The translations under genes and the position numbers were made by a program. From NCBI GenBank assembly GCA_041309605.1, contig JBFYZH010000115.1, positions 5,824 to 69,823 of the forward strand: a stretch of DNA of 64,000 bases, written 5' to 3'. This stretch comes from Candidatus Krumholzibacteriota bacterium. Its GTDB lineage: Bacteria > Krumholzibacteriota > Krumholzibacteriia > Krumholzibacteriales > Krumholzibacteriaceae. The notes below the pieces were generated by a model, which saw only the letters and a program-made list of their open reading frames with translations, ran no database searches and had not been told where the DNA came from. Shown here piece by piece: positions 7,993 through 47,758 of the stretch (position 1 is the first letter of the stretch; each line of letters begins with the position of its first letter).

Positions 7993-8028
7993 GGGGCGGG
8001 ATGGCGGGGAAAATGCGCGCCCCGCCCC
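7993..8028 (+). terminator. GC-rich hairpin after the amidase stop (weak terminator candidate, no U tract)
   Basis: ggggcggg (7993-8000) pairs with cccgcccc (8021-8028). No T-run follows. Confidence 0.3.
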
Positions 8029-8223
8029 GACCGCAGACCTGATCATTCACAAAAAGTTTTTCAATAAAGTGTGAGCCGTTACGTGCCGACAATACCTGCG
8101 TGTAAAGGGCAGTGAACAAGGCACGGCATCCTTCGGCCCGGCACCTTCGGCAAATTACGCCCATTATCAGGAAAATACGATCGAAACAGGTCCTTATCGA
8201 ATCAGGTCCTTACCGGCAAGGAG

Positions 8224-19003: not shown

Positions 19004-22000
19004 TCAGGGCTTGCCGGGGCTGCCGGGATTGCCGGGGCCGCCAGGGCCGCCAGGATTGCCGAAGCTGCCGGGGTTGCCGAGCGGGAGCGATCTCGCCGCA
19101 TCGGTGATCGCGCCTATCTTGACGGCGAAGCTCGTCCTGTTGGAGATGTCCTCGTCGGTCACGAAGTGCACGTCGAGAAGCCCTCCGGTGCGGTACCCCG
19201 TGCGAAGGTAGTTCAATTCGTCGAGGCAGAGGCTCCATCCCTCGAGCCAGTGCATGAGGTCGTCGCGCTGTTTCTTCTTTCCGCGGAAGTGTATGAGGAT
19301 GTCGATGTCGCTCGCGAGACCCGCCGTCGCGTTCTTGGTGCTGCCGAAGACGTAGAAGCCCTGGACGCCGAACCGCTGCGGATCGATCCGCGATGCGATG
19401 TGTTCGGCCATGCGGAGCCTCCATACCCACGACTGGTCGGCGGGATCCTCGTGGTCGAGCGGTTTGTCTGAAACCGGCTCCGAGGCCGAACCCGGTTCGG
19501 CCAGCACCCCGACCGCCTCGCCGATGTCGGCGTTCATAAGAACGCGCAGGACCAGGCCGCCGGTCACCTCCGGCACGTCGATCAACCTCACGGTGTCGGC
19601 GAGATGCTCGTACTCCAGCAGGACTTCGGCGAGGATGTTCTTGGAATTCCGGAGGAAATCCTCGTTGAAAACGATCCCGTCGTCGTCGGGGTAGAGTGGG
19701 AGGTAGCGTATGTGTCCCTCGACGAGGTCCTGGAAGAAATGTGTGCCGAAGGAAAGGTCGGGCAGGTAGTTACCCTTCTTTCTTGCGATCTCTATCAGCA
19801 CGGCCGTGTTGTTGATGTCCGAGTACGTGATGCTCACGCCGAGCTTGATGTCGCCGCGGCTTCCCCAGCGTCCAGGTCCCATGAGGATGAACTGCCTCTT
19901 GGGAAGCAGCTTGTTGAGCTTGCCGACCGCGCGGCCTACGGCGACGAGATCGTCCCTGTCGGAAAGTTCGCTGTATTTTTCGGGATCGATATAGACTACG
20001 TGCGTTATCTCCGGGACGCGCCCGTTCGACACGTACCGGTTCGCCGAGAAGATCTTCCTTTCCGGAGGCGTGTTCTGCGGGATGGGCGTGGCTACACTGT
20101 CTTCCGAATAGCTCTGCGGCCTGCACTGGAGAAGGTAGAGGTCCTTGCCGTCGTGCGCGAATTCTATATCGACGGGCGTGGAGAGTTTTTCCTCGAGGAG
20201 CTTGAGCATGCCGTCGATTTTTTTAACGAAGGGGGTGTCGGTCACGAGTCCCTCGAAGGTCGTATAGACCTCCGTCTCCGCGAAATCCAGCCTCATCGCG
20301 AACGCCTTGTGAAGGTGCCCGTTTTCGTAGACGGAGACGATCTTCTCTATCATCGGTATTTCGGCCCCGGTTTCCCTGAAAAAATCGCGCAGGACGACCG
20401 TCTCGAATGAATTCGTCTTCAGATTGATCACGTCGGCCATCCTCGGCGAATAGTAGATCGATTCCTCGGGGGTGACGTTTACGCGAAGGCTCGGATTGCC
20501 TGGCGCGAGAAGGATCGGGAAGTCGTCGCCGAGGCGGTCCACCGCCCTTGTGCCGAGGCCCGGCACCATCCTTATGAGCCCGTCCTCGCGCCTGATCCGC
20601 GGCGACCAGAGGAACTCGTTCCTGCTGAAGGCGACCCCCGAAAAAGCGGGCAGATAATAATCCCCGATGCGCCTTCCAACGACCTCCTGGATCATTATGC
20701 CCATTTCCTCGCTGAAGTCGAGAAGCCCTCGCTCGGACCTGTACTCGATCGGGTCGGGCCCGAAGGTCGAGGCGTAGACCTCCGCTATCGCGTCCATCAG
20801 GGCCTCGAGCCGTTTCTGCTTGCTCCCCTGGTTGGCGAGGAAGAGACTCTTGTACTTTCCCGAGAAAGCCGCCCCGAGGCTGTCCTCGAGAAGGCTCGAG
20901 CTTCGTATGATGAGCGGCGTGTATCCGAATTCGTCGAGCATCATCGACAGGCCCTGGACGATTTCTGGCGGGAAGCGGCCGTTCTTGAAGGTCCGTATCA
21001 CGTTCGGATACTCGAGCCGGATCTGGTTGATGTCCTTGTATTTCTGCTCGATGATCTCGTCGAGGTTGTTGTACCCGAGAAATACGAGGAGAAGGTCGCT
21101 CGTGAGGTGCCAGCTTCTCGGTATCTTTATCTGTTTGAGCAGATCGCCGGCTTCGTCCGATTTTTTTATGATATTGTATGCGAGGTGCAGTCCGGCGCAT
21201 TTGCCCCCGAGCCTTCCGTGGCTGTCCGAGCAGTAGACGATCCTGTCGATGACGTCGGAATAATCGCTTATCCCGATATATTTTTTCGCGATGTTGATGT
21301 GTTCGAGCTGCCCCGAATAGAACCGCCTGATCAGCGCGACTTCGACGCCGCTTTTTGTCGCCCCGGTGAGCTCGATCCCCTCGGGGGCGATGGCGCGGTA
21401 ATCCCTCAGGGTCGAGATCACGCCGGCCAGCGTCGTGTTGCGGTTTGTCAGCTGCATGAGGAACTTGAGCTTGTCCTCCTGTATCCATTTCTGAAGGTAG
21501 GCCATGATCTGGTTGTCGGTGAACTGCGTCGAGGCTATGTCGAATATCTCCGCGCTCAACTCATCGGTTATCCTGAGGGCCTTCCTCTTCTTCGGCTTGT
21601 TCGTCTCCGCGGGATTCTCGGCGTCCAGGTCGTTCGAGGCGCTGTTGCCGTCGCGCAGCCTGTCCGCCTTCTCGACGCCGGTCCAGCAGAGATGATTGAG
21701 CATTCTCTCGGAGATGTTGTTGAACAGGTTGCGGTCGGTGTTGCCCACCAGGTTCAGTATCGCGCGCCATTCCCTCTCGCCGTCGTCGGTCTTGAGCGCG
21801 CCCTTCTTCTCCGCGGCCCCCTTGAGCATCTGGTGTAGCATGAAACTGCCCAGCCTGGCGGCTATCGTCTGGAGCAGCCTCATTTCCTGCTTGAGGAAGG
21901 GGCATTCCTCCTTCTCCGGCGTGGTCTTGACGTAAAAAACGTGGATCTCGCCGGCCTTTTTCTCGTTTACGAGGATGTCGGCGCGCTGCATGCACTCGGT

Positions 22001-22231
22001 CTCCCTGAAGTCGGGGGGCTGGAAGACGCCGGTGCCCACCAATACCCTCGCGCGGCAGTCGTCCGGGTGCTGCCATCCCGACGGGATCGCCTCGGCGATA
22101 TCCATGCAGACCTGGTCGAGCTCGGCGTCATGCTTCTTCAGTATTTCCTCGACGCGGTAAAGGCACTCGAGTTCCTTCTCCCTTTCGCGGAAGAAGTGGA
22201 GCATGTCGTCGTTGTACTGTTCCTTATTCAT
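19004..22231 (-). CDS. Large multidomain protein (1075 aa). Domains in order: unknown N-domain, PEP-synthase/PPDK-type ATP-binding domain (PPDK_N), conserved middle domain shared with the neighbouring paralogue, C-terminal Pol-beta-type nucleotidyltransferase domain, Gly-Pro collagen-like tail.
   Basis: 'GGKCAGL', 'IRSSSLLEDSLGAAFSGKYKS' and 'VDIEFAHDGKDLYLLQCRPQ' are hallmarks of PF01326-type domains. Middle domain 'ILMGPGRWGS...SFGTHFF'. NTase motif 'FYVFGSTKNATAGLASDIDILIHF'. Tail 'GNPGSFGNPGGPGGPGNPGSPGKP'. Confidence 0.75.
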   Translation of the reverse strand: MNKEQYNDDMLHFFREREKELECLYRVEEILKKHDAELDQVCMDIAEAIPSGWQHPDDCRARVLVGTGVFQPPDFRETECMQRADILVNEKKAGEIHVFYVKTTPEKEECPFLKQEMRLLQTIAARLGSFMLHQMLKGAAEKKGALKTDDGEREWRAILNLVGNTDRNLFNNISERMLNHLCWTGVEKADRLRDGNSASNDLDAENPAETNKPKKRKALRITDELSAEIFDIASTQFTDNQIMAYLQKWIQEDKLKFLMQLTNRNTTLAGVISTLRDYRAIAPEGIELTGATKSGVEVALIRRFYSGQLEHINIAKKYIGISDYSDVIDRIVYCSDSHGRLGGKCAGLHLAYNIIKKSDEAGDLLKQIKIPRSWHLTSDLLLVFLGYNNLDEIIEQKYKDINQIRLEYPNVIRTFKNGRFPPEIVQGLSMMLDEFGYTPLIIRSSSLLEDSLGAAFSGKYKSLFLANQGSKQKRLEALMDAIAEVYASTFGPDPIEYRSERGLLDFSEEMGIMIQEVVGRRIGDYYLPAFSGVAFSRNEFLWSPRIRREDGLIRMVPGLGTRAVDRLGDDFPILLAPGNPSLRVNVTPEESIYYSPRMADVINLKTNSFETVVLRDFFRETGAEIPMIEKIVSVYENGHLHKAFAMRLDFAETEVYTTFEGLVTDTPFVKKIDGMLKLLEEKLSTPVDIEFAHDGKDLYLLQCRPQSYSEDSVATPIPQNTPPERKIFSANRYVSNGRVPEITHVVYIDPEKYSELSDRDDLVAVGRAVGKLNKLLPKRQFILMGPGRWGSRGDIKLGVSITYSDINNTAVLIEIARKKGNYLPDLSFGTHFFQDLVEGHIRYLPLYPDDDGIVFNEDFLRNSKNILAEVLLEYEHLADTVRLIDVPEVTGGLVLRVLMNADIGEAVGVLAEPGSASEPVSDKPLDHEDPADQSWVWRLRMAEHIASRIDPQRFGVQGFYVFGSTKNATAGLASDIDILIHFRGKKKQRDDLMHWLEGWSLCLDELNYLRTGYRTGGLLDVHFVTDEDISNRTSFAVKIGAITDAARSLPLGNPGSFGNPGGPGGPGNPGSPGKP

Positions 22232-23981
22232 GGAGTATCACCCCCCGGCCGCTTCGGCCGTCCACCCTGATTTCGAGAGGCCGGTCGAGCCTCACATGCC
22301 TGACGTGTTCGGTCGTCGCGGCGGGCGGCTGCGAGTCGAGCCACTTCCAGTCTATCAGATATTCTCCGTCATGTTGAACGGAGAAATAGAATATCCTGAA
22401 ACTCGTGACGTTGTGGAAAAAGTGCGATCCCTGGCTGAGGTTGAAATTCATGTCGGGAAGGGACGCTTCTACGATCACCTTCGCGCCGGAAATCTGGCTG
22501 AAATCGACCGGTATCCCGCCGGACGGGTCGGTCGTTCCCCAGCGCCCGAATCCTATCAGGATATAGGGCTTTTTAGCGCCGGTCAGTTCGCGGTTGAATC
22601 GCTCGATCTCCTTTGCGATCGCGCCGGTGCCGGCCGCGTCGAAACGTTCCGGATCGACGTAAAGTATGTCGGTAATGTCGCCCAGGGTGCCGTTGCCGAG
22701 GACCGTCTTCGAGGCGAGAACGGCCCGGGCGCTGGAAAGCTCCTCTTCGGGCACTTCGACCTTCGCGTCGGAAACGACCATCGGCCTTACCTGCAGAAAC
22801 CCGAAATGCGCCGGCGAGCAGTACTCCCGCTCGAGGGTCATGGCGAATTCGATCTCCACCATCGTCCCGATAGTGTCCTCGCAAAGCTTCAATACCGTCC
22901 TCAGGACCTCGGTGAGCGGTATGACGCCGGCCTTGAGGATCGGGGAGAAATCGAGGACACGAGGTCCCGCGGCCTCGATTCCCATCTCGATCCTCTCGTC
23001 GTACGGAAGGTATGTCGAGGCTATATGGCGCAGGGTCCCGTCGTATTCGCCGTCCTCGATACCGCACCTTACGAGGTACTCGGTCTCGAGTATCGGATTG
23101 TAGACCGGAGGCGCGCCCATGTTGACGGCCCAGAATCCGGTCTGCGAATTCTTGAGCATGTCGCCGATCGATTTGAACGGCGGGTTCGCCTGGGGCCAGG
23201 CCGGCGAGAAGGCCCACGACACCCCTTCGTCGACGATGGTCCGGCCGAGGCCGAGGGCCAGTTCGACGATCCCCTCGCCCGGCCGGGCGTTGCCGGTCGG
23301 ATAGAAATTGTACGAGCGCATGACCCCCGATATATGGGGGTAGAAACGGGTGTCGAACCTCGTCCCGACTATCTCCTGGACGATCACCGCCATCTTTTCG
23401 TCGATCGTCGCGTGGTGCGTCGCCTTCATGTAATTGCCCGCGGATTTGAAGAAAGTGGAGGCGTAGACGAACTTGATCGCCTCGGAGAGTTTCCTGAAAC
23501 GCGAATCGGCGTCGGGCTGGTTGTTGGAGACCATCTTCGTCGCGTAGACGCTGGCGAACGGTTCGAACATCGCGTCTTCCAGAAGGCTCGAGGAGCGTAT
23601 CGCCAGCGGCGAATGGACCTGCTCGACGAGGGAGCGCAGGTCTCCGACGAGGCGCACGGGGAGGGTCGCCTTCTGGAAGGCGTGCGCTATGAGGTCGTCG
23701 CGGTCTCCCGAGTAGGCGATATCGAAGAGATTGTTCTCCTTCATGAAAAGGTCGAAGAACTCGGTGGTAATCACGCTCAGGGTGGGGATCGTTATCGAAA
23801 TGTCGGGTTCGTACGATCTGCACGGCTTCGACTCGAGGATGGTCTTCATCCTTGCCAGGCCGTGCGCCTTGCCGCCGAGCTCGCCCGAACCCATGTAGGT
23901 GAAACGGTGGCTGCCGTCGAAAAAATGCCGGTCAAACCGGGTAAGGGAGGCGTGATGGGGGCTGTATTCTTTCCCGGGCAT
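22224..23981 (-). CDS. PPDK_N (PEP synthase ATP-binding)-domain protein (585 aa) plus the same middle domain. Paralogue of the adjacent gene; overlaps it by 8 bp.
   Basis: 'ELGGKAHGL', 'IRSSSLLEDAMFEPFASVYATKMV' and 'VEIEFAMT...GFLQVRPM'. Middle domain 'ILIGFGRWGTTDPSGG...SQGSHFFHN' is alignable to the 1075-aa protein. Confidence 0.75.
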   Translation of the reverse strand: MPGKEYSPHHASLTRFDRHFFDGSHRFTYMGSGELGGKAHGLARMKTILESKPCRSYEPDISITIPTLSVITTEFFDLFMKENNLFDIAYSGDRDDLIAHAFQKATLPVRLVGDLRSLVEQVHSPLAIRSSSLLEDAMFEPFASVYATKMVSNNQPDADSRFRKLSEAIKFVYASTFFKSAGNYMKATHHATIDEKMAVIVQEIVGTRFDTRFYPHISGVMRSYNFYPTGNARPGEGIVELALGLGRTIVDEGVSWAFSPAWPQANPPFKSIGDMLKNSQTGFWAVNMGAPPVYNPILETEYLVRCGIEDGEYDGTLRHIASTYLPYDERIEMGIEAAGPRVLDFSPILKAGVIPLTEVLRTVLKLCEDTIGTMVEIEFAMTLEREYCSPAHFGFLQVRPMVVSDAKVEVPEEELSSARAVLASKTVLGNGTLGDITDILYVDPERFDAAGTGAIAKEIERFNRELTGAKKPYILIGFGRWGTTDPSGGIPVDFSQISGAKVIVEASLPDMNFNLSQGSHFFHNVTSFRIFYFSVQHDGEYLIDWKWLDSQPPAATTEHVRHVRLDRPLEIRVDGRSGRGVILHE

Positions 23982-37399: not shown

Positions 37400-39211
37400 G
37401 TGATGAGAAAGTTTTCGATCCTTGTGGCCCTTGCCACGTTTTTCGTCGCGGTCCCTCGGCTTCCCGATGCACGTACGATCGACGTGCTGATGATCGTACC
37501 TCAGGATTATGGGGCGAATTTCCATTTATATTTGGATGATCTGTCGGCGAGAGGCTGGAATGTGACTACGGCGGGGACTTCGAGATCGCTCCGGCCCTGT
37601 CCGACCTTCGGCGATCCGGTAGCCGGGTGCCGGGAAATGGAGGTCGATCTTCTCATCGACGAGATAACGGATATATCCGGGTATGACTGCGTGGCCGTGA
37701 TGTCATCCTCGGCCTGGGTCGACAATCCTTACGGCGATCTTCTGGCGAGCGGGAAACTCCCCGCCCTGCTGAAAGAAGCGGACAGACGGGGGAAGATTAT
37801 ATGGGGGCAGTGCGGGGCGGTGAGGGTTCTGGCGGCGGCGGGAGTGATAAAGGGCCGAAGGGTCGTCGGGCATCCCAAGTTCAAGGATGAATACACGGCG
37901 GCGGGGGCGGAATTCCTGGGAAACAACCATCCGCCGGTGATCGACGGCAATATCGTTACGGGGGTCAGGGGACAGTACTATCACTTCCAGAATTCCAACG
38001 CGGTGATAACGGCCGTGGAACGGATGTTCCCGAAGGGCGATCCTGAAAGCGCCGATAACAATTCCGGCCGGATCGACGAGAGTGTTCTGAACATAAGCGG
38101 CGCCGTCTGGGCGAGGGCTTTCGGCGGCCGGGGATCCGAAGGGGCCGGGGCGGTCGCGCCTGCCGGGGACGGCGGATTTATTATCGCCGGATATACCGAT
38201 TCATGGGGAAACGGTTTTTCGGACCTGCTTCTTATCAGGACCGGGCCGGACGGAAAAAGGAAATGGGCGAAGACCTTCGGAGGGGCCGGCTGGGAATATG
38301 GAAACGCGGTTTGCGCGGCGTCTGACGGCGGGTATATCGTCGCAGGGAGCAGTTCTTCCTGGGGCAAAGGGTCGAGGGACGTTTTCGTTCTTCGCACGGA
38401 TTCCGATGGAAAGGCCCTCTGGTCCAGGACCCTCGGCGGTCCAGGGGCGGATGTGGCGGCGGCGGTATGCGAAACGGGAAACGGCGGGATACTGGTCTGT
38501 GGATATACCGACTCTTACGGCAGGGGCGAGGAAGATGTTTACCTCGCCGGAATGGATGGCGGCGGAAAGGTTCTCTGGACCAGGACGTTCGGATATGAAC
38601 GCTACGAGATGGGAAGTTCGGTCTTCGAAACGGACGGCGGCGATATTGTCGTGACAGGGTCGTCCGGTTCGCCGGAATTGAGCGGGGACAACGCGGATTT
38701 CTACCTTGTCCGCACCGACGCCCTGGGCAATCCGAAGTGGGAGAGAGCCTACGGAAATTCGGTCTCGAAACATCCCTTCGATTTCGGCAGGCATGGAATA
38801 AGGACTCGCGACGGGGGCTGCCTGGTCGTCGGCGACAGCGACGTCAACGCGCCGCTTGACCTTTACGTCCTTAAAACGGATTCCGCCGGAGAAAAGGAGT
38901 GGTTGAAGAATTACGGCGGCAGGTTCTACGAATACGCCTGCGCGGCGTATGAATCCGGGGACAACGAATTTCTGGTCTGTGGAACGAAGATAAATTCCGA
39001 TTCGGGCGACAGGGATATCTACATGGATATCATCGCCCCGGACGGAAGCGGGTTATCGATGATGGATTTCAGGATGGATGGCGGCGACCGGGCCGGGGGC
39101 ATCTGCCCCTCCGGCGACGGAGGTTGTGTGATCGTCGGGCAAACGGAATCCGGGAGAGCCGGCGGGTACGATCTTCTCATAATGAAAGTCGCCGGGCGGA
39201 TGGCGCGGTGA
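37400..39211 (+). CDS. Secreted fusion of a DJ-1/PfpI (class-I glutamine amidotransferase-like) domain with about 7 SBBP-type beta-propeller repeats
   Basis: Signal peptide. 'GQCGAVRVLAAAGVIKGRRVVGH' nucleophile-elbow region of DJ-1/PfpI. Repeated 'GG.G.D.G..V....DGGY.V.G.T.S.G.G..D..L.RTD..G...W..T.GG'. Confidence 0.7.
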   Translation: MMRKFSILVALATFFVAVPRLPDARTIDVLMIVPQDYGANFHLYLDDLSARGWNVTTAGTSRSLRPCPTFGDPVAGCREMEVDLLIDEITDISGYDCVAVMSSSAWVDNPYGDLLASGKLPALLKEADRRGKIIWGQCGAVRVLAAAGVIKGRRVVGHPKFKDEYTAAGAEFLGNNHPPVIDGNIVTGVRGQYYHFQNSNAVITAVERMFPKGDPESADNNSGRIDESVLNISGAVWARAFGGRGSEGAGAVAPAGDGGFIIAGYTDSWGNGFSDLLLIRTGPDGKRKWAKTFGGAGWEYGNAVCAASDGGYIVAGSSSSWGKGSRDVFVLRTDSDGKALWSRTLGGPGADVAAAVCETGNGGILVCGYTDSYGRGEEDVYLAGMDGGGKVLWTRTFGYERYEMGSSVFETDGGDIVVTGSSGSPELSGDNADFYLVRTDALGNPKWERAYGNSVSKHPFDFGRHGIRTRDGGCLVVGDSDVNAPLDLYVLKTDSAGEKEWLKNYGGRFYEYACAAYESGDNEFLVCGTKINSDSGDRDIYMDIIAPDGSGLSMMDFRMDGGDRAGGICPSGDGGCVIVGQTESGRAGGYDLLIMKVAGRMAR

Positions 39212-39478: not shown

Positions 39479-39504
39479 TTGATTTTCCGAAAGTTGAGTA
39501 TAAT
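39479..39504 (+). promoter_or_regulatory. Sigma70-like promoter (TTGATT...TATAAT) of the TetR/biosynthetic operon
   Basis: TATAAT at 39499-39504 with TTGATT at 39479-39484 (short spacer), within an AT-rich island. Confidence 0.4.
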
Positions 39505-39514
39505 AATTCCGTCC

Positions 39515-39544
39515 GACTAACCGGTCAGTTCTGACCGGTTAGTC
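39515..39544. promoter_or_regulatory. Perfect 30-bp palindromic operator GACTAACCGGTCAG-TT-CTGACCGGTTAGTC between the -10 box and the TetR start
   Basis: Seen directly. 14-bp arms are exact reverse complements. Classic position for a TetR-family autoregulatory operator. Confidence 0.6.
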
Positions 39545-39553
39545 AAAACGAGG

Positions 39554-40240
39554 ATGGAGAAAGAATTGGTTAAAGGAACCAGAAAAAAAACCGTAAAGAA
39601 GAACAGGGCGGGATCGAAGTCCGAAGTGACCAGGCAGGTCCTGCTGGAAGCCGCCCAGGGAGTGTTCGCGGAGAAGGGTATGGATTCGTCCACAATCGAC
39701 AATATTACCGAGAGAGCGGACGTCGGGAAAGGCACGTTCTATTACCACTTCGAGAACAAGAACGAGATCATACTCGAACTTCTCGGCAGAATAATGGAGG
39801 AACTTACGGAAGCCATAGACGCCAAGTGCCGGGACCTCGAGGATCTCGAGGAACTCATCGACGCGCTGATAAAGGCTCACCTGGAGTTCTTCGCCACGAG
39901 GATGGATGATTTCATCCTCTACTTCCAGGGAAGGGCGGACCTGACGATAAAGGAAGGATACGAAGGCATAGATGAACCGATACTTGCATATCTTGACCAT
40001 ATCGCGGACCTGTTGGACGACGTGATCATGTATCGTCTCAAGAGGAATACATTAATAAGGATAGCGTGGGCCGTGGCGGGATTCGTCTCGGGATATTTTT
40101 CCTTCGCGGTCATTTCGTATGAGGAGGAAAAACTGGATGAAACTCTCGAGCCCGTGCGCAAAGCGCTTGTTGTAGGTCTTTCACGCTTTATAAAGGAGGC
40201 AATACCGAAGATAGCCGAATCACAGCAATCATTATTGTAA
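39554..40240 (+). CDS. TetR/AcrR-family transcriptional regulator
   Basis: N-terminal HTH 'TRQVLLEAAQGVFAEKGMDSSTIDNITERADVGKGTFYYHFENK'. Confidence 0.85.
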   Translation: MEKELVKGTRKKTVKKNRAGSKSEVTRQVLLEAAQGVFAEKGMDSSTIDNITERADVGKGTFYYHFENKNEIILELLGRIMEELTEAIDAKCRDLEDLEELIDALIKAHLEFFATRMDDFILYFQGRADLTIKEGYEGIDEPILAYLDHIADLLDDVIMYRLKRNTLIRIAWAVAGFVSGYFSFAVISYEEEKLDETLEPVRKALVVGLSRFIKEAIPKIAESQQSLL

Positions 40241-40319: not shown

Positions 40320-40745
40320 ATGCCAGAAGAAAGCACGCTCGTAGCTGAGAAGCCCGCCTCCGGAAGAAATTTTTTCATGGAGGCGGTCGAGCAGAACGTT
40401 TGGGGCATTGCCTCAAGTATCGATATTTACGATTGCGATCCGGAAACCATCCGGGACGCGGAAAAAATAAAACAGTTCGTTCTCGAACTTTGCGAACTGA
40501 TCGAGATGAGACGTTTCGGAGAGACGGTGGTAGTCCACTTCGGCGAGAACGAAAAGGTCGCCGGATATTCGATGATACAGCTCATCGAAACGTCGCTCAT
40601 ATCGGCCCATTTCGCCAACCAGACGAATACGACCTACCTGGACGTATTCAGCTGCAAGCCTTACGACCCGCAGGTCGTCGTGGAATTTGCCCGGCGGTTC
40701 TTCGGGGGCGCATATTGCGCGACCAATGTTACGCTGAGGCGTTAG
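40320..40745 (+). CDS. Small pyruvoyl-dependent decarboxylase proenzyme of the SpeH/AdoMetDC class-1 family (S-adenosylmethionine or arginine decarboxylase-like)
   Basis: 141 aa. 'GYSMIQLIETSLISAHFANQ' aligns to the AdoMetDC self-cleavage/pyruvoyl site (xES-HISxHTxPE). Size and layout are typical of SpeH. Confidence 0.55.
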   Translation: MPEESTLVAEKPASGRNFFMEAVEQNVWGIASSIDIYDCDPETIRDAEKIKQFVLELCELIEMRRFGETVVVHFGENEKVAGYSMIQLIETSLISAHFANQTNTTYLDVFSCKPYDPQVVVEFARRFFGGAYCATNVTLRR

Positions 40746-40749
40746 CCGG

Positions 40750-41781
40750 ATGGTCCGCGCATATTCAGTGACCGATCAGGATGAGTGCCGGGCGCTCTGG
40801 GAGGAGAACATGCCCCGGCAATTCATTACTGACCTGTGGCCCGTGCGGGAATGTTTCCATGGCCGTTTCGGCCGCGATCCCAATTTCATCGTGGCGGAGG
40901 AATCAGGGAAAGTCGTCGGCCTTATTCCGACAAGCTGGGTTCCCGAGAGTCGCTGTTACTGCTATTTCCCGGGCGAGACATGGCACGGAAAAACCTGGCT
41001 CGAACAGAACCGGATCCTCGCGAGGGACGGAAATGTTCTGGGTGAGATGCTCCATTGCCTGGAAGGTTCGGGGGCGGACTATCACCTGAGATACCTTCTG
41101 CCTTTCCGGCAGGGGATTTCCACGGCCGTTTCCGAACGGGAGAAACGCGAAAAAAAGGAATGCCTGCTCGATGAGACAGGCTATCTTTTCCGCGGCGCAT
41201 CTCACGGGCACGATTTCGACCGCTATTTCAGCAGTTTTTCCGGCAAGAGGGCCAAGAAGATAAGGCGGGAAATGGAGGCCCTGGAATCCAGGGATCTCGT
41301 CGCAAGACCCGGCGGACCGGATGATTTCGATACCCTTGTCGGCATGAACATCGACCGGTACGGGAATGATTCCTACTTCGCCGACGGGCGTTTCGCGGGC
41401 GGATTCCGCGACCTGATGCTCCTGCTTGCCGGCAGGGGATGGATGCGGATGACGGTAATCACGGTGGAGGGGCAGCCCGCCGCGGTCGATCTGGGATGCG
41501 TTTTCGACGGCTCTTATACCCTGCTCGCCGGCGGCACCGACGCCCGTTTTCCCGGGATAGCCAAATATATCAACCTCTATCATATACGCAGAGCCTGCGA
41601 GGAGAGATTCGAAACGGTCGATTTTCTGTGCGGGGAATTTGCATGGAAGGACACCTTCCATCTTTCGGCGCGCCCGCTTTTCAAGATTACGAATATGGAC
41701 GAGACCCTTCTCGGCTCGTTCAGCGAAAGCGGTCTGCGGCAAGCCGGGGAAAACGATCCGGCGGAAACGGCCCGGGGTTGA
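40750..41781 (+). CDS. GNAT-fold acyltransferase of the FemAB/CelD-like (Acetyltransf_6) type
   Basis: 'FSSFSGKRAKKIRREMEALE' and C-terminal 'VDLGCVFDGSYTLLAGGTDARFPGIAKYINLYHIRRACEERFETVDFLCG' are characteristic of PF13480-type proteins. Confidence 0.6.
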   Translation: MVRAYSVTDQDECRALWEENMPRQFITDLWPVRECFHGRFGRDPNFIVAEESGKVVGLIPTSWVPESRCYCYFPGETWHGKTWLEQNRILARDGNVLGEMLHCLEGSGADYHLRYLLPFRQGISTAVSEREKREKKECLLDETGYLFRGASHGHDFDRYFSSFSGKRAKKIRREMEALESRDLVARPGGPDDFDTLVGMNIDRYGNDSYFADGRFAGGFRDLMLLLAGRGWMRMTVITVEGQPAAVDLGCVFDGSYTLLAGGTDARFPGIAKYINLYHIRRACEERFETVDFLCGEFAWKDTFHLSARPLFKITNMDETLLGSFSESGLRQAGENDPAETARG

Positions 41782-41785
41782 AATC

Positions 41786-43063
41786 ATGTCCGACAGGCGA
41801 GTGATGGTGGTCGGGACGACCGCCGACTACATAGAGATCATCTCGAATAGATATCCCGGCAGGTGTGTTTTCGTAACCGATCCGGCGGAAAGGCGAAGGC
41901 ATCCGGAAAACGCGCCGGAGCCGGCAGGCGAACTCCTGTGCGACCTGGAGGATGACGGCGCGGCCCGGCGCGCGCTGCCGGATCATCTCGCCGCGCATGA
42001 CATCGAAGCGTCGGGGATCACCTCTTTCGATTGCGAATCGCTCATGCTCGCCGCGCTCCTCGCCCGGTCCCTCGATCTGAAGTTTCCGTCGCCGGAAAGC
42101 GTAGCCGTCTGCCGGTCGAAATACTCCACCAGGAAAAGATGGATGGACTCCGGGGTCCTGTGCCCGGAAACGGCGCTCGTTCGAACGATGGCGGAGGCGG
42201 CCGATTTCTTCGAGAGGACCGCCGCGCCGGTCGTGATGAAGCCTCTTTCGGGAAGCGGGAGCGAGCTTGTCACCCTCTGCCGGGACAGGTCGGAATGCGA
42301 GATCGCATTCGCCCTGATTTCGGAACGGATGGCGGGGCACAAGAACGCCAGGATGTATTCCTCCATCGGGCCCGGGGACGGGAACGATCCGAGGACCGCG
42401 TTCGTCATCGAGGGCTATATCCAGGGAGTCGAGTTCAGTTGTGACTTCGCCATGGACGGACCGGACCTGGAGATCATAAGGATAGCGAGGAAGATACCCG
42501 CCCCCGGCCAGCCCCTGGGCACGACGCTGGCCTATATCCTGCCGTCCGAGCTACCCGGCGGGCTGGATCGAAAGGCACTGGCGGCCGTGCTTCTTAAGGC
42601 GGCGCGGGCCCTGGGCCTGGAGCGGACGATGGCGATGGTCGACATGATCGTTTCCGAAGACGGGATTTACCTGCTCGAGATGACTCCGAGGCCGGGGGGC
42701 GATTGCCTTCCCGACCTGATTATGGAGAGCAGCGGGTTCGACACCCTCGGCGCCGCCCTGGATTTCGCGGAGGGGAAAAGGTTGAATGTGCCGCCGGCCG
42801 GCGCCTGGCGCAGCCTCACCGGCCTGAGACTGATCGCTTCGCGGGAGGGGACGCTGAAAAGGCTCGATTGCGCCGGGATCGCCTCCGACAGGCGGGTCCG
42901 TTCATGCCATCTCAAGCGCGCTCCGGGGGACAGGGTGGTCCTTCCGCCGCTCGATTACGATTCCCGCATCCTGGGGCATGTGATATACGATACTGCGCGG
43001 GAGGAGCGCCGCGATCTCGATATGAAGGAGATCGGTTCCAAACTGGGCGTCGAGATCGTCTGA
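41786..43063 (+). CDS. ATP-grasp family ligase
   Basis: 'PVVMKPLSGSGSELVTLC', 'VIEGYIQGVEFSCDF' and 'IYLLEMTPRPGG' ATP-grasp core motifs. Confidence 0.75.
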   Translation: MSDRRVMVVGTTADYIEIISNRYPGRCVFVTDPAERRRHPENAPEPAGELLCDLEDDGAARRALPDHLAAHDIEASGITSFDCESLMLAALLARSLDLKFPSPESVAVCRSKYSTRKRWMDSGVLCPETALVRTMAEAADFFERTAAPVVMKPLSGSGSELVTLCRDRSECEIAFALISERMAGHKNARMYSSIGPGDGNDPRTAFVIEGYIQGVEFSCDFAMDGPDLEIIRIARKIPAPGQPLGTTLAYILPSELPGGLDRKALAAVLLKAARALGLERTMAMVDMIVSEDGIYLLEMTPRPGGDCLPDLIMESSGFDTLGAALDFAEGKRLNVPPAGAWRSLTGLRLIASREGTLKRLDCAGIASDRRVRSCHLKRAPGDRVVLPPLDYDSRILGHVIYDTAREERRDLDMKEIGSKLGVEIV

Positions 43064-43086
43064 CGGCGCTGCGGATGGCGGTTCAT

Positions 43087-44382
43087 ATGGGAAAATCATC
43101 TTCAAATAATCCTCCGGCGGCCCCCCTTCTTCTGGGGAGGAAGGTTCTCGAGGATCATGTCTCGACGTTCATCGGGCGAAAGGAAACATTCCTCGCCCTG
43201 AGGGCCGGGAACGGGTCGCCCCTCTACATAATCGAAAAGGGCGTCCTTATCGGCAGGGCGGGCCGTTTCCGGGCCGCTTTTGAAAAGCATCTGCCCGGCT
43301 CGTCGTTCTACTACGCCATGAAGAGCAACAACCATCCGGTCGTCGCGGAAACGATTCTGGGCGCCGGATTCGGAATCGACGTGTCGAGCGGGCTGGAACT
43401 TCAGGCGGCGCTCGACCTTGACGCCCCGGACATAATTTTCAGCGGCCCGGGGAAAACTCCGGCCGAGCTCGGGCTGGCCGTCGCAAACGTCGGCCGCGTG
43501 ACGGTCCTGGCGGACAGCTTCGATGAGATACGCCGTCTCGACGCGGCGGCGCGCGGGGAAGGCGTGGTGGCAAGGGCGGGCGTAAGGCTGACCTCCGGCG
43601 AGCATGGGTTGTGGAGGAAGTTCGGGATACCGCTGGAGGACCTGGGGCGTTTTTTCTCCTTGTCGGACGGACTGGAGAACGTTTGCCTGTGCGGCTTGCA
43701 GTTCCATTCGAGCTGGAACATGGACCCGGGCAAACAGACGGCCTTCATAGGCCGGGTGGGGGAGGCTCTTCGCGGCCTTCAGCAGAAGCACCTTCGACGG
43801 ATCGAATTCATGGACATCGGCGGCGGGTACTGGCCGCCGCAGGGCGAATGGCTTCATCCGCCCGGGATAATGGACGGCCTGGAACCGGGGGAAAACCGGA
43901 TGGGTCTCCACGAGGTTCCGGAGCACAGGTGGGTGGCCGCCTCGCCGATCGAGGAGTTCGCCGATTCGATAGGACGGGCCGTCCGGGAGAGGATATTCCC
44001 GTCGATCGATTGCAGGATATGCCTGGAACCGGGGCGGTGGATCTGCAACGACGCGATGCACATCCTGCTGACTGTAATCGACCGCAAGGGCGAGGGCCTC
44101 GTCATCACCGATGCGGGGACGAACGCGATCGGATGGGAGAGGTTCGAGACGGATTATTTTCCGTTGATAAACTTGAGCCGGCCCTCCCTGACCGAGCGCG
44201 GATGCCTCGTGCTGGGATCCCTCTGCACGCCTCACGACGTATGGGGATTCAGTTATTTCGGGGAGGGGATCGGACCCGGCGACGTCCTTCTTCTGCCGTG
44301 TCAGGGCGCATACACATACAGCCTGCGCCAGCACTTCATAAAACCTTTGCCGGAGGTTGTTTTTATCGGAGAATCAAGGTAA
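43087..44382 (+). CDS. PLP-dependent fold-III decarboxylase (Orn/DAP/Arg/carboxy(nor)spermidine decarboxylase family)
   Basis: PLP-Lys motif 'YYAMKSNNHPVV', 'DIGGGYW', 'CLEPGRWICNDA', catalytic Cys region 'GSLCTPHDVWG'. Confidence 0.8.
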   Translation: MGKSSSNNPPAAPLLLGRKVLEDHVSTFIGRKETFLALRAGNGSPLYIIEKGVLIGRAGRFRAAFEKHLPGSSFYYAMKSNNHPVVAETILGAGFGIDVSSGLELQAALDLDAPDIIFSGPGKTPAELGLAVANVGRVTVLADSFDEIRRLDAAARGEGVVARAGVRLTSGEHGLWRKFGIPLEDLGRFFSLSDGLENVCLCGLQFHSSWNMDPGKQTAFIGRVGEALRGLQQKHLRRIEFMDIGGGYWPPQGEWLHPPGIMDGLEPGENRMGLHEVPEHRWVAASPIEEFADSIGRAVRERIFPSIDCRICLEPGRWICNDAMHILLTVIDRKGEGLVITDAGTNAIGWERFETDYFPLINLSRPSLTERGCLVLGSLCTPHDVWGFSYFGEGIGPGDVLLLPCQGAYTYSLRQHFIKPLPEVVFIGESR

Positions 44383-44458: not shown

Positions 44459-44635
44459 ATGTCGAAATCCCTACCAACCAAGTGTCCGAAATGCGGAAGC
44501 AGGAACATTCAATCGGCCGAATACGGGTCCAAGAAGAAGAGGGTCGTCGTTTATTGCGCCGACTGCGATTATGAATTCGAGATCAGGGGTGGTGTGAAGG
44601 AAACCGACAACCCCTCCCACAAATATGACCAATAA
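44459..44635 (+). CDS. Unlisted 57-aa zinc-ribbon protein (CxxC...CxxC)
   Basis: AGGAGAG RBS 8 nt upstream. 'MSKSLPTKCPKCGSRNIQSAEYGSKKKRVVVYCADCDYEFEIRGG...'. Below the 60-aa ORF-track cutoff. Confidence 0.4.
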   Translation: MSKSLPTKCPKCGSRNIQSAEYGSKKKRVVVYCADCDYEFEIRGGVKETDNPSHKYDQ

Positions 44636-46104: not shown

Positions 46105-46725
46105 ATGCAGGAACCCGGGAACGATCGGACCGACATGGAGCGGGAGAGCGAAAGGCTGGCGGTGATGTTTCTGGAAGGAGACCGCGAGGCCTTCAACCGG
46201 CTTGTCCTGATGCATCAGGAGATGGTTTTCAGTCTCTGCTTCAGGCTGACAGGAGATTATGACGACGCCGACGATTGCGCGCAGGAGGTATTTATAAAGG
46301 TGCACCGGCACCTCAAGGGATTCAGGTTCGAGTCGTCATTCAGGACCTGGCTGTACAGGGTGACGGTCAACACATGCAGGAACAGGATCGATTCGCTGGA
46401 GTACCGTATGAGAAAAAAGAAGGTCAGCATCTACGCGGGACCGGGGGACAACGGGCAGGCGGCCCCCGTGGAAATACCGGACAGGGGGGAATCCGCACTG
46501 GACGGACTTCGCAGGAAAGAGGTCGGGCGCATCATCCAGAAGGCGCTGGACGCCCTTCCCGGGAGCCAGAAAACGGTGGTCGTCCTGAGGGATATCGAAG
46601 GCCGGTCTTACGAGGAAATAGAATGGATGACCGGGCTCAACTCCGGCACGGTGAAATCGAAGTTGTCGCGCGCCAGGTCGAAACTGCGGGAAGCCCTGCG
46701 GGGGAAGATTGATGAAGAACTGTAA
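46105..46725 (+). CDS. ECF sigma factor (RpoE-like)
   Basis: 'FNRLVLMHQEMVFSLCFRLTGDYDDADDCAQEVFIKV' region 2. 'VVVLRDIEGRSYEEIEWMTGLNSGTVKSKLSRAR' region 4. Confidence 0.85.
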   Translation: MQEPGNDRTDMERESERLAVMFLEGDREAFNRLVLMHQEMVFSLCFRLTGDYDDADDCAQEVFIKVHRHLKGFRFESSFRTWLYRVTVNTCRNRIDSLEYRMRKKKVSIYAGPGDNGQAAPVEIPDRGESALDGLRRKEVGRIIQKALDALPGSQKTVVVLRDIEGRSYEEIEWMTGLNSGTVKSKLSRARSKLREALRGKIDEEL

Positions 46726-47758
46726 AATCGTGCGGAAGATGCTCTCGGAATATATCGACGGAGTTCTGCCGGAGGGCGGGACCAGGACCGTAAAAGAGCA
46801 TATGGAACAGTGCGATGAATGCCGCGAGGTCCATGATTCGATGAAGGCGATCATAGCCTCGATGAACGATATGGAAACGGTCGCACCCCCCGCCGATTTT
46901 CTCGAAAAGGTCAATTCGAGGCTCGAACGCCGATCTTCGGCCGCCGGTTTTCTGCGCGGGATATTCCTTCCCCTGAGATTCAAGTTGCCGCTCGAGCTGG
47001 CCGGCCTCGCCGCCGCCGTAATGCTGATCGTTTATGTCTCGGGTTTTCTCGGGAAGGAAGGGATAGAGAAGATGGCTCCGGACGGGCGGATCGCCGGCCG
47101 GACGGAGGAGATTGTCGTCGAAGCCGAAGCGAAACGGGTCGAAGTCAGGGACAGCGGCGTCAAAAACGATCCGACGAAACCGGAGGAGCTCCCTGCAGAA
47201 CCCGAAGAGCTCCCTGTGGACGATGTGGTCGGGGCAACCGCGCTTAAGAACGGTGTTGTCAGGAAGGGCGGCGATCTGCGGGTGAGGGGCGGGCGCAGGG
47301 GCGAGACGCAGGTCGGTCGAGTGGAAGATTCACCCGAAGACGATGGAACGGTTTCGAATGAAGTCGCGACTTTGGCGTACAGCCTCGACCGGACGGATGG
47401 GGTTGCGAAGATTGAAGGAAAGGCGGCGGCCGGCCCGGCCTTTTCGGTCAATCCGCCGTCAGACCGGTTCGACAGCCTTCTTGCGGTATGTGAAGACCCC
47501 GGTGAAGAACTCGAAGCCTTCGTCGCGTCGATCGGCGGGAGGATCGTCTCCGTGCCCGAAACGATGATACTTGATGCCTCCTTGAAGGCGGCGAGAAGCG
47601 ACAGGCGGGCGATCCGGCCTCTGACGGTCGTCGTCCCGGGCGATTCTCTGCGGGTATTTTTCGATGGGCTCGGGAGGCTGGAAAAGATACGCCCGATCGA
47701 CTCCTGGATCGTCTCGCAGACGAGCGACAGCGCTACGGTGAGGATCGATTTCAGATAA
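46709..47758 (+). CDS. Anti-sigma factor (zf-HC2) with TM segment and a ~230-aa extracytoplasmic domain. Overlaps the sigma gene by 17 bp.
   Basis: 'CKIVRKMLSEYIDGVL.......HMEQCDECREVHDS'. TM 'LELAGLAAAVMLIVYVSGFL'. Confidence 0.65.
   Translation: MMKNCKIVRKMLSEYIDGVLPEGGTRTVKEHMEQCDECREVHDSMKAIIASMNDMETVAPPADFLEKVNSRLERRSSAAGFLRGIFLPLRFKLPLELAGLAAAVMLIVYVSGFLGKEGIEKMAPDGRIAGRTEEIVVEAEAKRVEVRDSGVKNDPTKPEELPAEPEELPVDDVVGATALKNGVVRKGGDLRVRGGRRGETQVGRVEDSPEDDGTVSNEVATLAYSLDRTDGVAKIEGKAAAGPAFSVNPPSDRFDSLLAVCEDPGEELEAFVASIGGRIVSVPETMILDASLKAARSDRRAIRPLTVVVPGDSLRVFFDGLGRLEKIRPIDSWIVSQTSDSATVRIDFR

Follow-up and report, generated by a model that had tools for sequence, protein, structure and literature searches.

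A widespread four-gene operon headed by a SpeDC-type decarboxylase and its possible role in the synthesis of putrescine conjugates

The stretch of DNA analysed here, referred to as the window (64,000 nucleotides of contig JBFYZH010000115.1, positions 5,824 to 69,823, from a Candidatus Krumholzibacteriota bacterium), contains at 40320-44382 four intact + strand genes, which were taken from the list of its open reading frames (ORFs) and are termed g1 to g4. They encode, in this order, a pyruvoyl-dependent decarboxylase proenzyme, a tandem-GNAT transferase of the Fem type, an ATP-grasp ligase and a fold-III decarboxylase dependent on pyridoxal phosphate (PLP). Together they constitute an uncharacterised and very widespread small biosynthetic operon, in which each enzyme belongs to a known superfamily, while the products of g2, g3 and g4 miss every curated family cut-off that would mark them as orthologues of characterised enzymes. 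The assignment of g1 as a SpeDC-type enzyme converting L-ornithine to putrescine is well supported by its sequence signature, and we propose, with about even confidence, that the operon specifies a TetR-controlled pathway, independent of nonribosomal peptide synthetases (NRPS), which leads from ornithine through putrescine to a small amide-linked putrescine conjugate. Its chemical logic has precedents in Francisella rhizoferrin, the butirosin side chain, phevamine and the tRNA-dependent glycylation of BD-12, though the combination matches none of them. An earlier note on this DNA had not recognised the gene set as a described pathway; likewise, no description of it was found in the literature searched, whose coverage was incomplete with many subscription papers lying outside it, nor did that literature mention the terms ATP-grasp and pyruvoyl together in a polyamine context.

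The four enzymes

The first gene, g1 (40320-40745, + strand), encodes a protein of 141 aa that matches the AdoMet_dc family PF02675 (1.6e-23) across positions 4-106 of the 107-position profile. It had been expected to match the hidden Markov models of the S-adenosylmethionine decarboxylase (AdoMetDC) family, and this was borne out for PF02675 but not for the AdoMetDC equivalog TIGR03330, against which it reaches only 32.3 bits, below the cut-off of 75.65. Ser92, His97 and Cys112 of g1 match the processing residues of canonical SpeD, for which S63, H68 and C83 of the Thermotoga maritima AdoMetDC provide the reference, and are invariant in 62 orthologues. The anticipated self-cleavage serine is present in a Thr-Ser context, with cleavage predicted between Thr91 and Ser92 (Ser codon 40593-40595). 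Alignment with the canonical SpeD of an Acidobacteria locus (L073), to which g1 is 27% identical, places T-S-L-I-S-A-H-F-A-N-Q...C of g1 against E-S-H-F-S-V-H-T-W-P-E...C. Thus, the cleavage site is Thr-Ser and not Glu-Ser, the Pro that marks AdoMetDCs is missing from the HFANQ segment, and SAHFANQ stands in place of the S(I/V)HTWPE of bona fide AdoMetDCs (SpeD/SpeH). Public annotations nevertheless name the g1 orthologues S-adenosylmethionine decarboxylase.

The sequence type to which g1 belongs was characterised as SpeDC, i.e. neofunctionalised AdoMetDC class 1b homologues that act as L-ornithine decarboxylases and none of which act on AdoMet, arginine or lysine; a Gln, a Thr, a Phe and a Tyr of the central region were stated to be diagnostic for them (PMC10407285; Li, Liang, Baniasadi, Phillips and Michael, J Biol Chem 2023). 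All four are present in g1 as Gln87, Thr91, Phe98 and Tyr106, positions that we assigned by matching the sequences of supplementary Fig. S5 of that paper rather than from its Fig. 8. They are accompanied by a segment, QLIETSLISAHFAN..YLDVFSC, that is nearly invariant in the 62 orthologues. The same motif occurs in the ornithine decarboxylase (ODC) halves of the validated SpeD1-SpeD2 fusion proteins (PMC10407285, supplementary Fig. S5), and g1 shares 56% identity over 113 residues with the validated Omnitrophica OLB16 ODC half, whose sequence was corrected for optical character recognition errors. Stand-alone orthologues from bacteria of the candidate phyla radiation (CPR) share about 70% identity with g1, which makes it unlikely that the specificity has shifted within the operon. 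On the strength of these features the earlier view of the small pyruvoyl enzyme as AdoMetDC- or arginine-decarboxylase-like gives way to that of a predicted ODC. A direct sequence search of g1 against the PDB returned no meaningful match. Fold, processing Ser/His/Cys and the four diagnostic residues are common to g1 and the characterised SpeDC enzymes (PMC10407285), but the genes of the latter stand alone or with polyamine genes (speD/speE, casdh/casdc, hss), whereas g1 is followed in its operon by genes for a Fem-type GNAT, an ATP-grasp ligase and a FigC-clade decarboxylase; the terms ATP-grasp, GNAT and acetyltransferase do not occur in the SpeDC paper. In the Acidobacteria metagenome-assembled genome (MAG) mentioned above, a canonical SpeD with the ESH motif lies immediately upstream of a g1-type SpeDC with a 4-nt overlap (L073, 4087-4892; the contig ends 0.5 kb later), an arrangement corresponding to the SpeD/SpeD2 pairing of Li et al. 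2023 (PMC10407285).

The second gene, g2 (40750-41781, + strand; 343 aa), shows a match to PF13480 (Acetyltransf_6; 1.4e-21) and none to PF02388; it has no NCBIfam match at all, the PEP-CTERM FemAB model included, and no meaningful sequence match in the PDB. Its AlphaFold2 model (pLDDT 86.9, pTM 0.84) is a tandem GNAT with two lobes, and a Foldseek search of the PDB returned with probability 1.00 Sbb17, Sba18, FemX, FemA and the C-domain of MprF. The TM scores reach up to 0.65 for Sbb17/Sba18, about 0.55 for FemX and about 0.53 for the aminoacyl-phosphatidylglycerol synthase domain of MprF, and are lower, at 0.40-0.46, for the acetyl-CoA enzyme VipF. Orf11, Sba18 and Sbb17 of BD-12/glycylthricin biosynthesis and FemX transfer an aminoacyl group from tRNA to the primary amine of a small molecule (PMC12945691). 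These Fem-type transferases share the tandem-GNAT fold with g2 and are its best structural matches, but differ from it in sequence, with only 11-16% identity. For FemX and DhpH-C a catalytic aromatic-Lys pair (F304-K305 and F328-K329, respectively) and a basic tRNA-binding helix have been described. In g2 the pair W299-K300 near the C-terminus, which is invariant in 35 sequences, and the Lys/Arg-rich helix 165-179 resemble these elements, a likeness drawn from the model without residue-level superposition. Judging from the model, aminoacyl-tRNA would rather probably be the donor of g2. A polyamine acceptor for Fem-type transferases was not found in the literature searched.

The third gene, g3 (41786-43063, + strand; 425 aa from the ATG at 41786), encodes an ATP-grasp protein matching ATP-grasp_4 (7e-14) and ATP-grasp_3 (2.5e-09). 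A profile of 25 orthologues run against the PDB recovered 4dim (2.9e-30, positions 62-423) and 3vot/BL00235 (9.6e-28, positions 78-426), followed by RizA (4wd3; 6.5e-14) and BacD (1e-12); the L-amino-acid ligases are thus matched over nearly the full length, with Ddl, RimK and LysX as far weaker matches. The residues K152, E209, D286, E298, R302, G304 and G305, corresponding to nucleotide and Mg residues, are invariant. On account of these residues and the profile matches g3 is predicted to be an ATP-dependent carboxylate-amine ligase of the L-amino-acid-ligase type.

The product of the last gene, g4 (43087-44382, + strand; 431 aa), is a PLP decarboxylase with the alanine-racemase fold (fold III) that matches PF02784 (1.1e-21) and falls just under the gathering score of PF00278 (5.8e-4); with this proviso the four family assignments made earlier from the sequence all proved correct. 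Its catalytic motifs are complete, namely AMK79 with the PLP lysine (codon 43321-43323), FH207S with the ring-stacking histidine, the phosphate loop G245-G-G, E314-P-G-R317, and C380-T-P-H-D384 with the trans-subunit cysteine; K79, H207, G245-247, E314/R317 and C380 are invariant in 23-51 orthologues. A 23-sequence g4 profile run against the PDB found FigC/FslC first (1e-39) and as the sole single full-length match, with Aquifex diaminopimelate decarboxylase (DAPDC; 2.6e-35), SbnH (7e-34) and BtrK (1.7e-33) next, and then lysine/ornithine decarboxylase (4e-25) and ODC (4e-24). This ranking of profile matches, rather than a tree, places g4 in the clade of FigC, SbnH, AcsE, MccE, BtrK and DAPDC, and not, as the earlier note had it, among the fold-III enzymes that form diamines or decarboxylate carboxy(nor)spermidine. 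The best NCBIfam match is lysA (4e-31), followed by the exosortase-associated decarboxylase TIGR03099. Neither a LysA nor an N-citrylornithine decarboxylase assignment is tenable: g4 scores 108 bits against the LysA model TIGR01048 (cut-off 297.9), with the loop C-T-P-H-D and not C-E-S-G-D, and 70 bits against the FslC model NF041039 (cut-off 500).

FigC, SbnH, AcsE, MccE and BtrK form with DAPDC one clade that has no role in polyamine biosynthesis, and its members other than DAPDC decarboxylate amino acids that are already linked through their side chain to another moiety; decarboxylases of free basic amino acids carry an acidic residue beside the catalytic Cys, for which FigC instead has C-M-Q-H-D (PMC7857480). 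In g4 the loop is an invariant C-T-P-H-D, comparable to CTPED of BtrK and CTPKD of SbnH. It lacks the acidic neighbour of the Cys through which ODC and DAPDC bind free basic amino acids, which speaks for a conjugate as the substrate. The specificity helix of g4 is almost invariant as well (G-W-E351-R352-F/Y-E354-x-D356-Y357), and the acidic E351, E354 and D356 suggest that the substrate bears a positively charged distal group.

Conservation of the gene set and its natural variants

Two independent sets of homologous loci were collected, a genome set of 80 loci seeded on g1 and a metagenome set of 80 contig loci seeded on g3, and the flanking ORFs of both were clustered all-against-all. The g1 family itself comprises 4,221 relatives at E <= 1e-3 in a collection of 5.8 billion proteins, the best 120 listed being 67-100% identical. 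The closest relative of the present locus is found in a Krumholzibacteriia MAG (L007), with 89% identity in g1 and 97% in TetR. The conserved synteny sought for the gene set was recovered in both sets: the order g1-g2-g3-g4 is present in 61 of the 80 genome loci, and in the metagenome set g2 lies upstream and g4 downstream of g3 wherever the contig is long enough, with g1 missing from only two of these loci. As for the remaining genome loci, the cluster begins and then the contig ends in six, only g1 and g2 are found in five, all from Desulfobacula, g1 stands alone in four (Saccharibacteria, Paceibacteria, Omnitrophota), and the arrangement in the last four is undecidable. The hosts include Krumholzibacteria, Zixibacteria, Ignavibacteria, Armatimonadota, Lentisphaerota, Nitrospirae, Omnitrophota, Syntrophales, Planctomycetota (Phycisphaerae, Brocadiaceae, Pirellulales) and Thermodesulfobacteriota, the last with two strains in culture, Desulfobacter curvatus DSM 3379 (L055, NZ_KB893114.1) and D. 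latus AcRS2 (L064), and the operon order is common to more than ten bacterial phyla. Moreover, the pairwise-identity matrices of the g1-g4 proteins correlate with each other (r = 0.49-0.83), indicating that the four genes were inherited as a unit. Chance adjacency is excluded by these observations.

Regulatory genes are the most frequent associates of the module. In 20 genome loci and in about 55 of the 80 metagenome loci the gene immediately preceding g1 codes for a TetR orthologue (42-97% identity), and in Desulfobacterota a divergent sigma-54 activator takes the place of TetR (39 loci). A transporter of the major facilitator superfamily (MFS) directly follows g4 in seven genome and three metagenome loci. 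No other recurrent flanking gene was detected across the approximately 160 loci of the two sets; in particular, there is no conserved carrier protein, NRPS-independent siderophore (NIS) synthetase, reductase, aminopropyltransferase or hydrolase/amidase beside the module, no agmatinase in its conserved neighbourhood, and no conserved small ORF (of at least 50-70 aa) in or next to it. The remark of the earlier note that SpeE is absent is upheld, as neither the cluster nor its conserved neighbourhood encodes a spermidine synthase. A carboxyspermidine dehydrogenase (CASDH) is likewise missing from both, so that neither the canonical SpeD plus SpeE pair nor the pair of CASDH and carboxyspermidine decarboxylase (CASDC) is found. 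The sigma-54 activator (6102-7523 in L002, and 38 other loci) has an N-terminal region of about 140 aa without a Pfam match, which may be a degenerate receiver or sensor domain.

Two kinds of natural variant are informative. In the five Desulfobacula loci (L045, L047, L050, L053 and L058; ~8000-9320) the same sigma-54 activator precedes g1 and g2 alone, after which comes a convergent gene for a DEAD-box helicase. Conversely, the two metagenome loci devoid of g1 (L122, 345-4849; L152, 2195-6522) have the order tetR-g2-g3-g4, with a gap of about 160-180 nt between tetR and g2 that holds neither g1 nor a substitute. Together these variants imply that g2 is the shared core, and that g1 supplies amine and can be dispensed with where putrescine is otherwise available.

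Other affiliations of the module were considered and set aside. A defence system is contradicted by the lack of any PADLOC match for g1-g4, and a phage module by the lack of g2 relatives in the viral contigs of IMG/VR, g1 alone matching a PHROG family. An exact-sequence look-up of the g1-g4 proteins returned no names or accessions.

A possible pathway to putrescine conjugates and its alternatives

These considerations can be combined in a tentative scheme. The g1 proenzyme would process itself at Thr91|Ser92 to the pyruvoyl enzyme and convert L-ornithine to putrescine. With ATP, g3 would form an acyl-phosphate on an amino-acid carboxylate and join it to putrescine or to the side-chain amine of ornithine, giving an amide with a free alpha-amino-acid end; its family is evident from the profiles and the substrates are conjectural. 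The alpha-carboxylate of that end would then be removed by g4 to expose a new primary amine, by analogy with the ligate-then-decarboxylate logic of FigC, SbnH and BtrK, the clade being given by the profile ranking and the substrate presumed. Finally, g2 would cap the free primary amine with an aminoacyl group, most likely drawn from aminoacyl-tRNA, the fold being that of the model and the donor surmised from it. In view of the natural variants the amine on which g2 acts could be supplied either by g1 or by g3 and g4. At least two versions can be envisaged: in one, putrescine would be joined to the side-chain carboxylate of Glu or Asp to give gamma-Glu- or beta-Asp-putrescine, which after decarboxylation would become 4-aminobutanoyl- or beta-alanyl-putrescine and be capped by g2; in the other, an amino acid would be placed on the N-delta of ornithine, decarboxylation would yield an aminoacyl-putrescine, and the amine created in this step would be the target of g2. 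The pathway would end in a polycationic pseudopeptide of one to two decarboxylated amino-acid units and one to two amino acids, for which the TetR repressor may be the sensor and, in some lineages, the adjacent MFS transporter the exporter; such a regulator, with an MFS exporter here and there, is in keeping with a small molecule that is secreted in some cases. In general terms this agrees with the N-acylated or aminoacylated amine conjugate suggested in the earlier note.

Partial precedents exist for this chemical logic. In the rhizoferrin pathway of Francisella (FigA/FslA and FigC/FslC; PMC7857480) ornithine is likewise ligated through its side chain and then decarboxylated by a fold-III enzyme to a putrescine unit, and FigC/FslC is both the closest solved relative of g4 and similar to it in the C-x-x-H-D loop. 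However, the helix of FigC presents Thr/Thr/Tyr to the citryl group where g4 has the acidic E351/E354/D356, and the citrate-binding Arg387 of FigC corresponds to Leu413 in g4. The rhizoferrin ligase, too, is an IucA/IucC NIS synthetase, in contrast to the ATP-grasp enzyme and separate free-ornithine decarboxylase of the present operon, and no IucA/IucC gene was found in any of the approximately 160 neighbourhoods, nor are siderophore uptake genes present. A second parallel is the side-chain module of butirosin, BtrI/J/K, in which BtrJ is the ATP-grasp enzyme. Here too an ATP-grasp enzyme carries out a ligation, after which a PLP enzyme of clade 2 decarboxylates the tethered amino acid, and BtrK, which is among the best PDB matches of g4 and has the same C-T-P-x-D loop, is the fold-III decarboxylase that turns tethered Glu into GABA (PMC7857480). 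The butirosin module differs in having the carrier protein BtrI, whereas no carrier gene lies in or next to g1-g4 and there is no aminoglycoside context; a BtrI-like carrier was rejected as a component because neither locus set contains a conserved small ORF. The nearest precedent for the kind of product proposed, by analogy of pathway logic, is phevamine of Pseudomonas syringae, made by the three-gene NRPS-independent operon HsvA-C, in which the ATP-grasp enzyme HsvC ligates an amino acid to a polyamine (L-Val onto amidinospermidine; PMC6187163). That operon has neither decarboxylases nor a Fem-type transferase, includes an amidinotransferase, and draws its polyamine from primary metabolism.

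Several points weigh against this pathway. The order of the steps and the identities of the amino acids are guesses, and most loci lack a conserved exporter. A dedicated g1 looks redundant if an acyl-putrescine is made directly from ornithine by g3 and g4, in the manner of FigC. Moreover, g3 resembles ligases that activate the alpha-carboxylate; a PLP decarboxylase would not accept a plain alpha-dipeptide, so that one has to postulate a linkage through the side chain. The invariant Arg352 on the specificity helix of g4, as in DAPDC, leaves room for a free substrate that bears a carboxylate. As regards g2, the acetyl-CoA-binding tandem GNAT CBG (TM 0.52) is about equal to FemX as a structural match, and the G-x-A element at the beta4-alpha3 junction is kept; these features leave acyl-CoA as a possible donor.

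Among the alternatives, the four enzymes might modify the envelope or a macromolecule (a polysaccharide, a protein or a precursor of peptidoglycan) instead of making a free metabolite, with g2 acting like FemX on the stem peptide, g3 attaching putrescine or an amino acid in the manner of Ddl or RimK, and g4 decarboxylating the free D-centre of peptide-bound diaminopimelate or a similar residue. The close structural match of g2 to FemX, FemA and the C-domain of MprF, the leading NCBIfam matches of g4 to lysA and the exosortase-associated family, the weaker matches of g3 to Ddl, RimK and LysX, and the MurJ and glycosyltransferase genes located 3.5-6 kb downstream in the window would all suit such a role. 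We nonetheless consider it unlikely: the MurJ and glycosyltransferase neighbours are specific to this window, no cell-wall, exopolysaccharide or exosortase gene being conserved beside the module in the two locus sets; none of the g1-g4 proteins reaches a curated NCBIfam cut-off for such families, and g2 lacks NCBIfam matches altogether; and control by TetR or a sigma-54 activator with an occasional MFS exporter fits a small molecule better. A comparably low probability is given to intracellular polyamine homeostasis or storage, in which diamines for general use would be made by g1, and perhaps also by g4 from a second free amino acid, and be conjugated reversibly to amino acids by g2 and g3, buffering or detoxifying the pool by analogy with glutathionylspermidine and the gamma-glutamyl- and acetyl-polyamines. 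The stand-alone orthologues, about 70% identical to g1, in the primary polyamine synthesis of CPR bacteria and Omnitrophota, with one beside a canonical SpeD, would agree with this, as would the lack of a conserved exporter in most loci, and regulation through sigma-54, as in Desulfobacterota, would be in line with a part in nitrogen or stress physiology. Against it stand the missing acidic residue beside the catalytic Cys of g4, whose clade is described as unrelated to polyamines, the absence from the two locus sets of a conserved hydrolase or amidase for release, and the existence of variants without g1.

A more radical departure would be that g1 is a genuine AdoMet or arginine decarboxylase and that the pathway runs via decarboxylated AdoMet or agmatine, as the PF02675 match, the PHROG match to a family named S-adenosylmethionine decarboxylase and the public annotations might suggest. 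This we regard as very improbable in light of the score of 32 bits against an equivalog cut-off of 75.65, the Thr-Ser in place of Glu-Ser, the loss of the AdoMetDC Pro from HFANQ, the presence of all four SpeDC residues, and the want of both an aminopropyltransferase and an agmatinase in the conserved neighbourhood; furthermore, validated members of the g1 sequence type have no AdoMetDC, arginine decarboxylase or lysine decarboxylase activity (PMC10407285).

Should the putrescine-conjugate pathway be correct, SpeDC would often be the entry step of a dedicated regulated pathway rather than a housekeeping enzyme of polyamine metabolism, the range of tRNA-dependent aminoacyl transfer would come to include polyamine chemistry, and the ligate-then-decarboxylate logic would reach beyond siderophores and butirosin. 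The widespread misannotation of g1 as S-adenosylmethionine decarboxylase would also be corrected. The g1 family by itself amounts to more than 4,000 clusters in public data when grouped at 90% identity, and the metabolite would be a common one in anoxic environments. A stronger version, which we consider less likely than not, is that the products form a new class of polycationic pseudopeptides, aminoacyl-putrescine conjugates with a second decarboxylated unit, occurring widely among anaerobic bacteria of sediment and groundwater that belong to more than ten phyla, with g2 as the first enzyme of the Fem type shown to use aminoacyl-tRNA on a polyamine and g4 as a member of the FigC/BtrK clade with a new substrate class, cationic amide conjugates. 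The occurrence of this compact operon (about 4.8 kb as a whole) in cultured strains makes these proposals directly testable by heterologous expression.

The transcription unit and its surroundings

The intergenic gaps between g1 and g2, g2 and g3, and g3 and g4 are 4, 4 and 23 (or 11) nt, values that amend the earlier 5, 5 and 24 bp, which were off by one. The second value for the last gap stems from an alternative ATG for g4 at 43075; the start used here, 43087, is that of the public gene call. The mechanically derived ORF of g3 begins at a TTG at 41639 and runs into g2, and the ATG at 41786 gives the compact layout. AGGAG and GAGG motifs precede the starts of g1 and g2, respectively, each by about 10 nt, and the long antisense ORFs across the cluster are shadows of its high-GC genes. 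No terminator-like site was found on the + strand from the g1 start to the g4 stop, the only + strand sites in the region lying upstream at 39201 and 40077, the latter inside tetR; along with the tight gaps this upholds the earlier view that the four genes are likely to be co-transcribed.

A TetR-family regulator gene, tetR (39554-40240, + strand; PF00440, 8.8e-15), lies 79 nt upstream of g1 on the same strand, and the interval between the two contains neither a promoter-like site nor a palindrome. Such elements precede tetR instead. A candidate sigma-70-like promoter from a consensus scan (TTGATT-17-AATAAT; 39479-39507, + strand) is abutted by a palindrome, GACTAACCGGTCAG-TT-CTGACCGGTTAGTC (39515-39544), with 14-nt arms that are 100% complementary, which ends 9 nt before the tetR start and is a probable TetR operator. 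As promoter-like sites in the region are no more numerous than in shuffled sequences, the promoter candidate is weak on its own and is listed for the sake of the adjoining palindrome. From this arrangement the unit is read as tetR-g1-g2-g3-g4; the operon very probably begins with tetR at 39554, ahead of the 40320 start given in the earlier note, and is probably auto-repressed. The palindrome core CCGGTCAGTTCTGACCGG is kept in the closest relative (L007) and only there among the loci compared; in the others a search for perfect palindromes with arms of 7 nt or more found none, save that one (L020) has a different palindrome. The GC content of the cluster (0.604, against 0.586 for the window) gives no sign of recent horizontal transfer, which was considered and discarded.

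Beginning 76 nt after g4 is a small ORF encoding a zinc-ribbon protein of 58 aa with a CPKC...CADC pattern and a basic tail (44459-44635, + strand). Homologues directly follow g4 in three loci (L009, L031, L065) and the MFS transporter in five (L018, L024, L035, L051, L054), these being loci of Zixibacteria and Ignavibacteria. It is possibly a lineage-specific accessory gene, and its membership in the system is uncertain because it is absent from most loci. A role as a LysW-like carrier was rejected, as only about ten loci have the ORF, its tail is basic and not acidic, and most clusters lack it.

The rest of the window encodes ordinary chromosomal functions, including CTP synthase, KdsA, BipA, glutamate dehydrogenase, MurJ, glycosyltransferases and sigma/anti-sigma factors of the extracytoplasmic function (ECF) type; no further polyamine gene, aminopropyltransferase or carboxyspermidine dehydrogenase was detected among the 28 window ORFs scanned, which are a part of its ORFs. 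Three other features were observed in passing. Upstream of tetR, 37400-39211 (+ strand) encodes a protein of 603 aa with a signal-like hydrophobic N-terminus that unites a DJ-1/PfpI domain with beta-propeller repeats of the SBBP/delta-60 type, an unusual fusion. At 46105-47758 (+ strand) an ECF sigma factor gene and that of its zf-HC2 anti-sigma factor overlap by 17 nt and are followed by genes for MurJ and a GT4 glycosyltransferase. Finally, on the - strand at 19004-23981 there are two adjoining genes for PPDK_N (phosphoenolpyruvate-utilising, ATP-binding) proteins, the larger of which (1075 aa) has a C-terminal nucleotidyltransferase domain.

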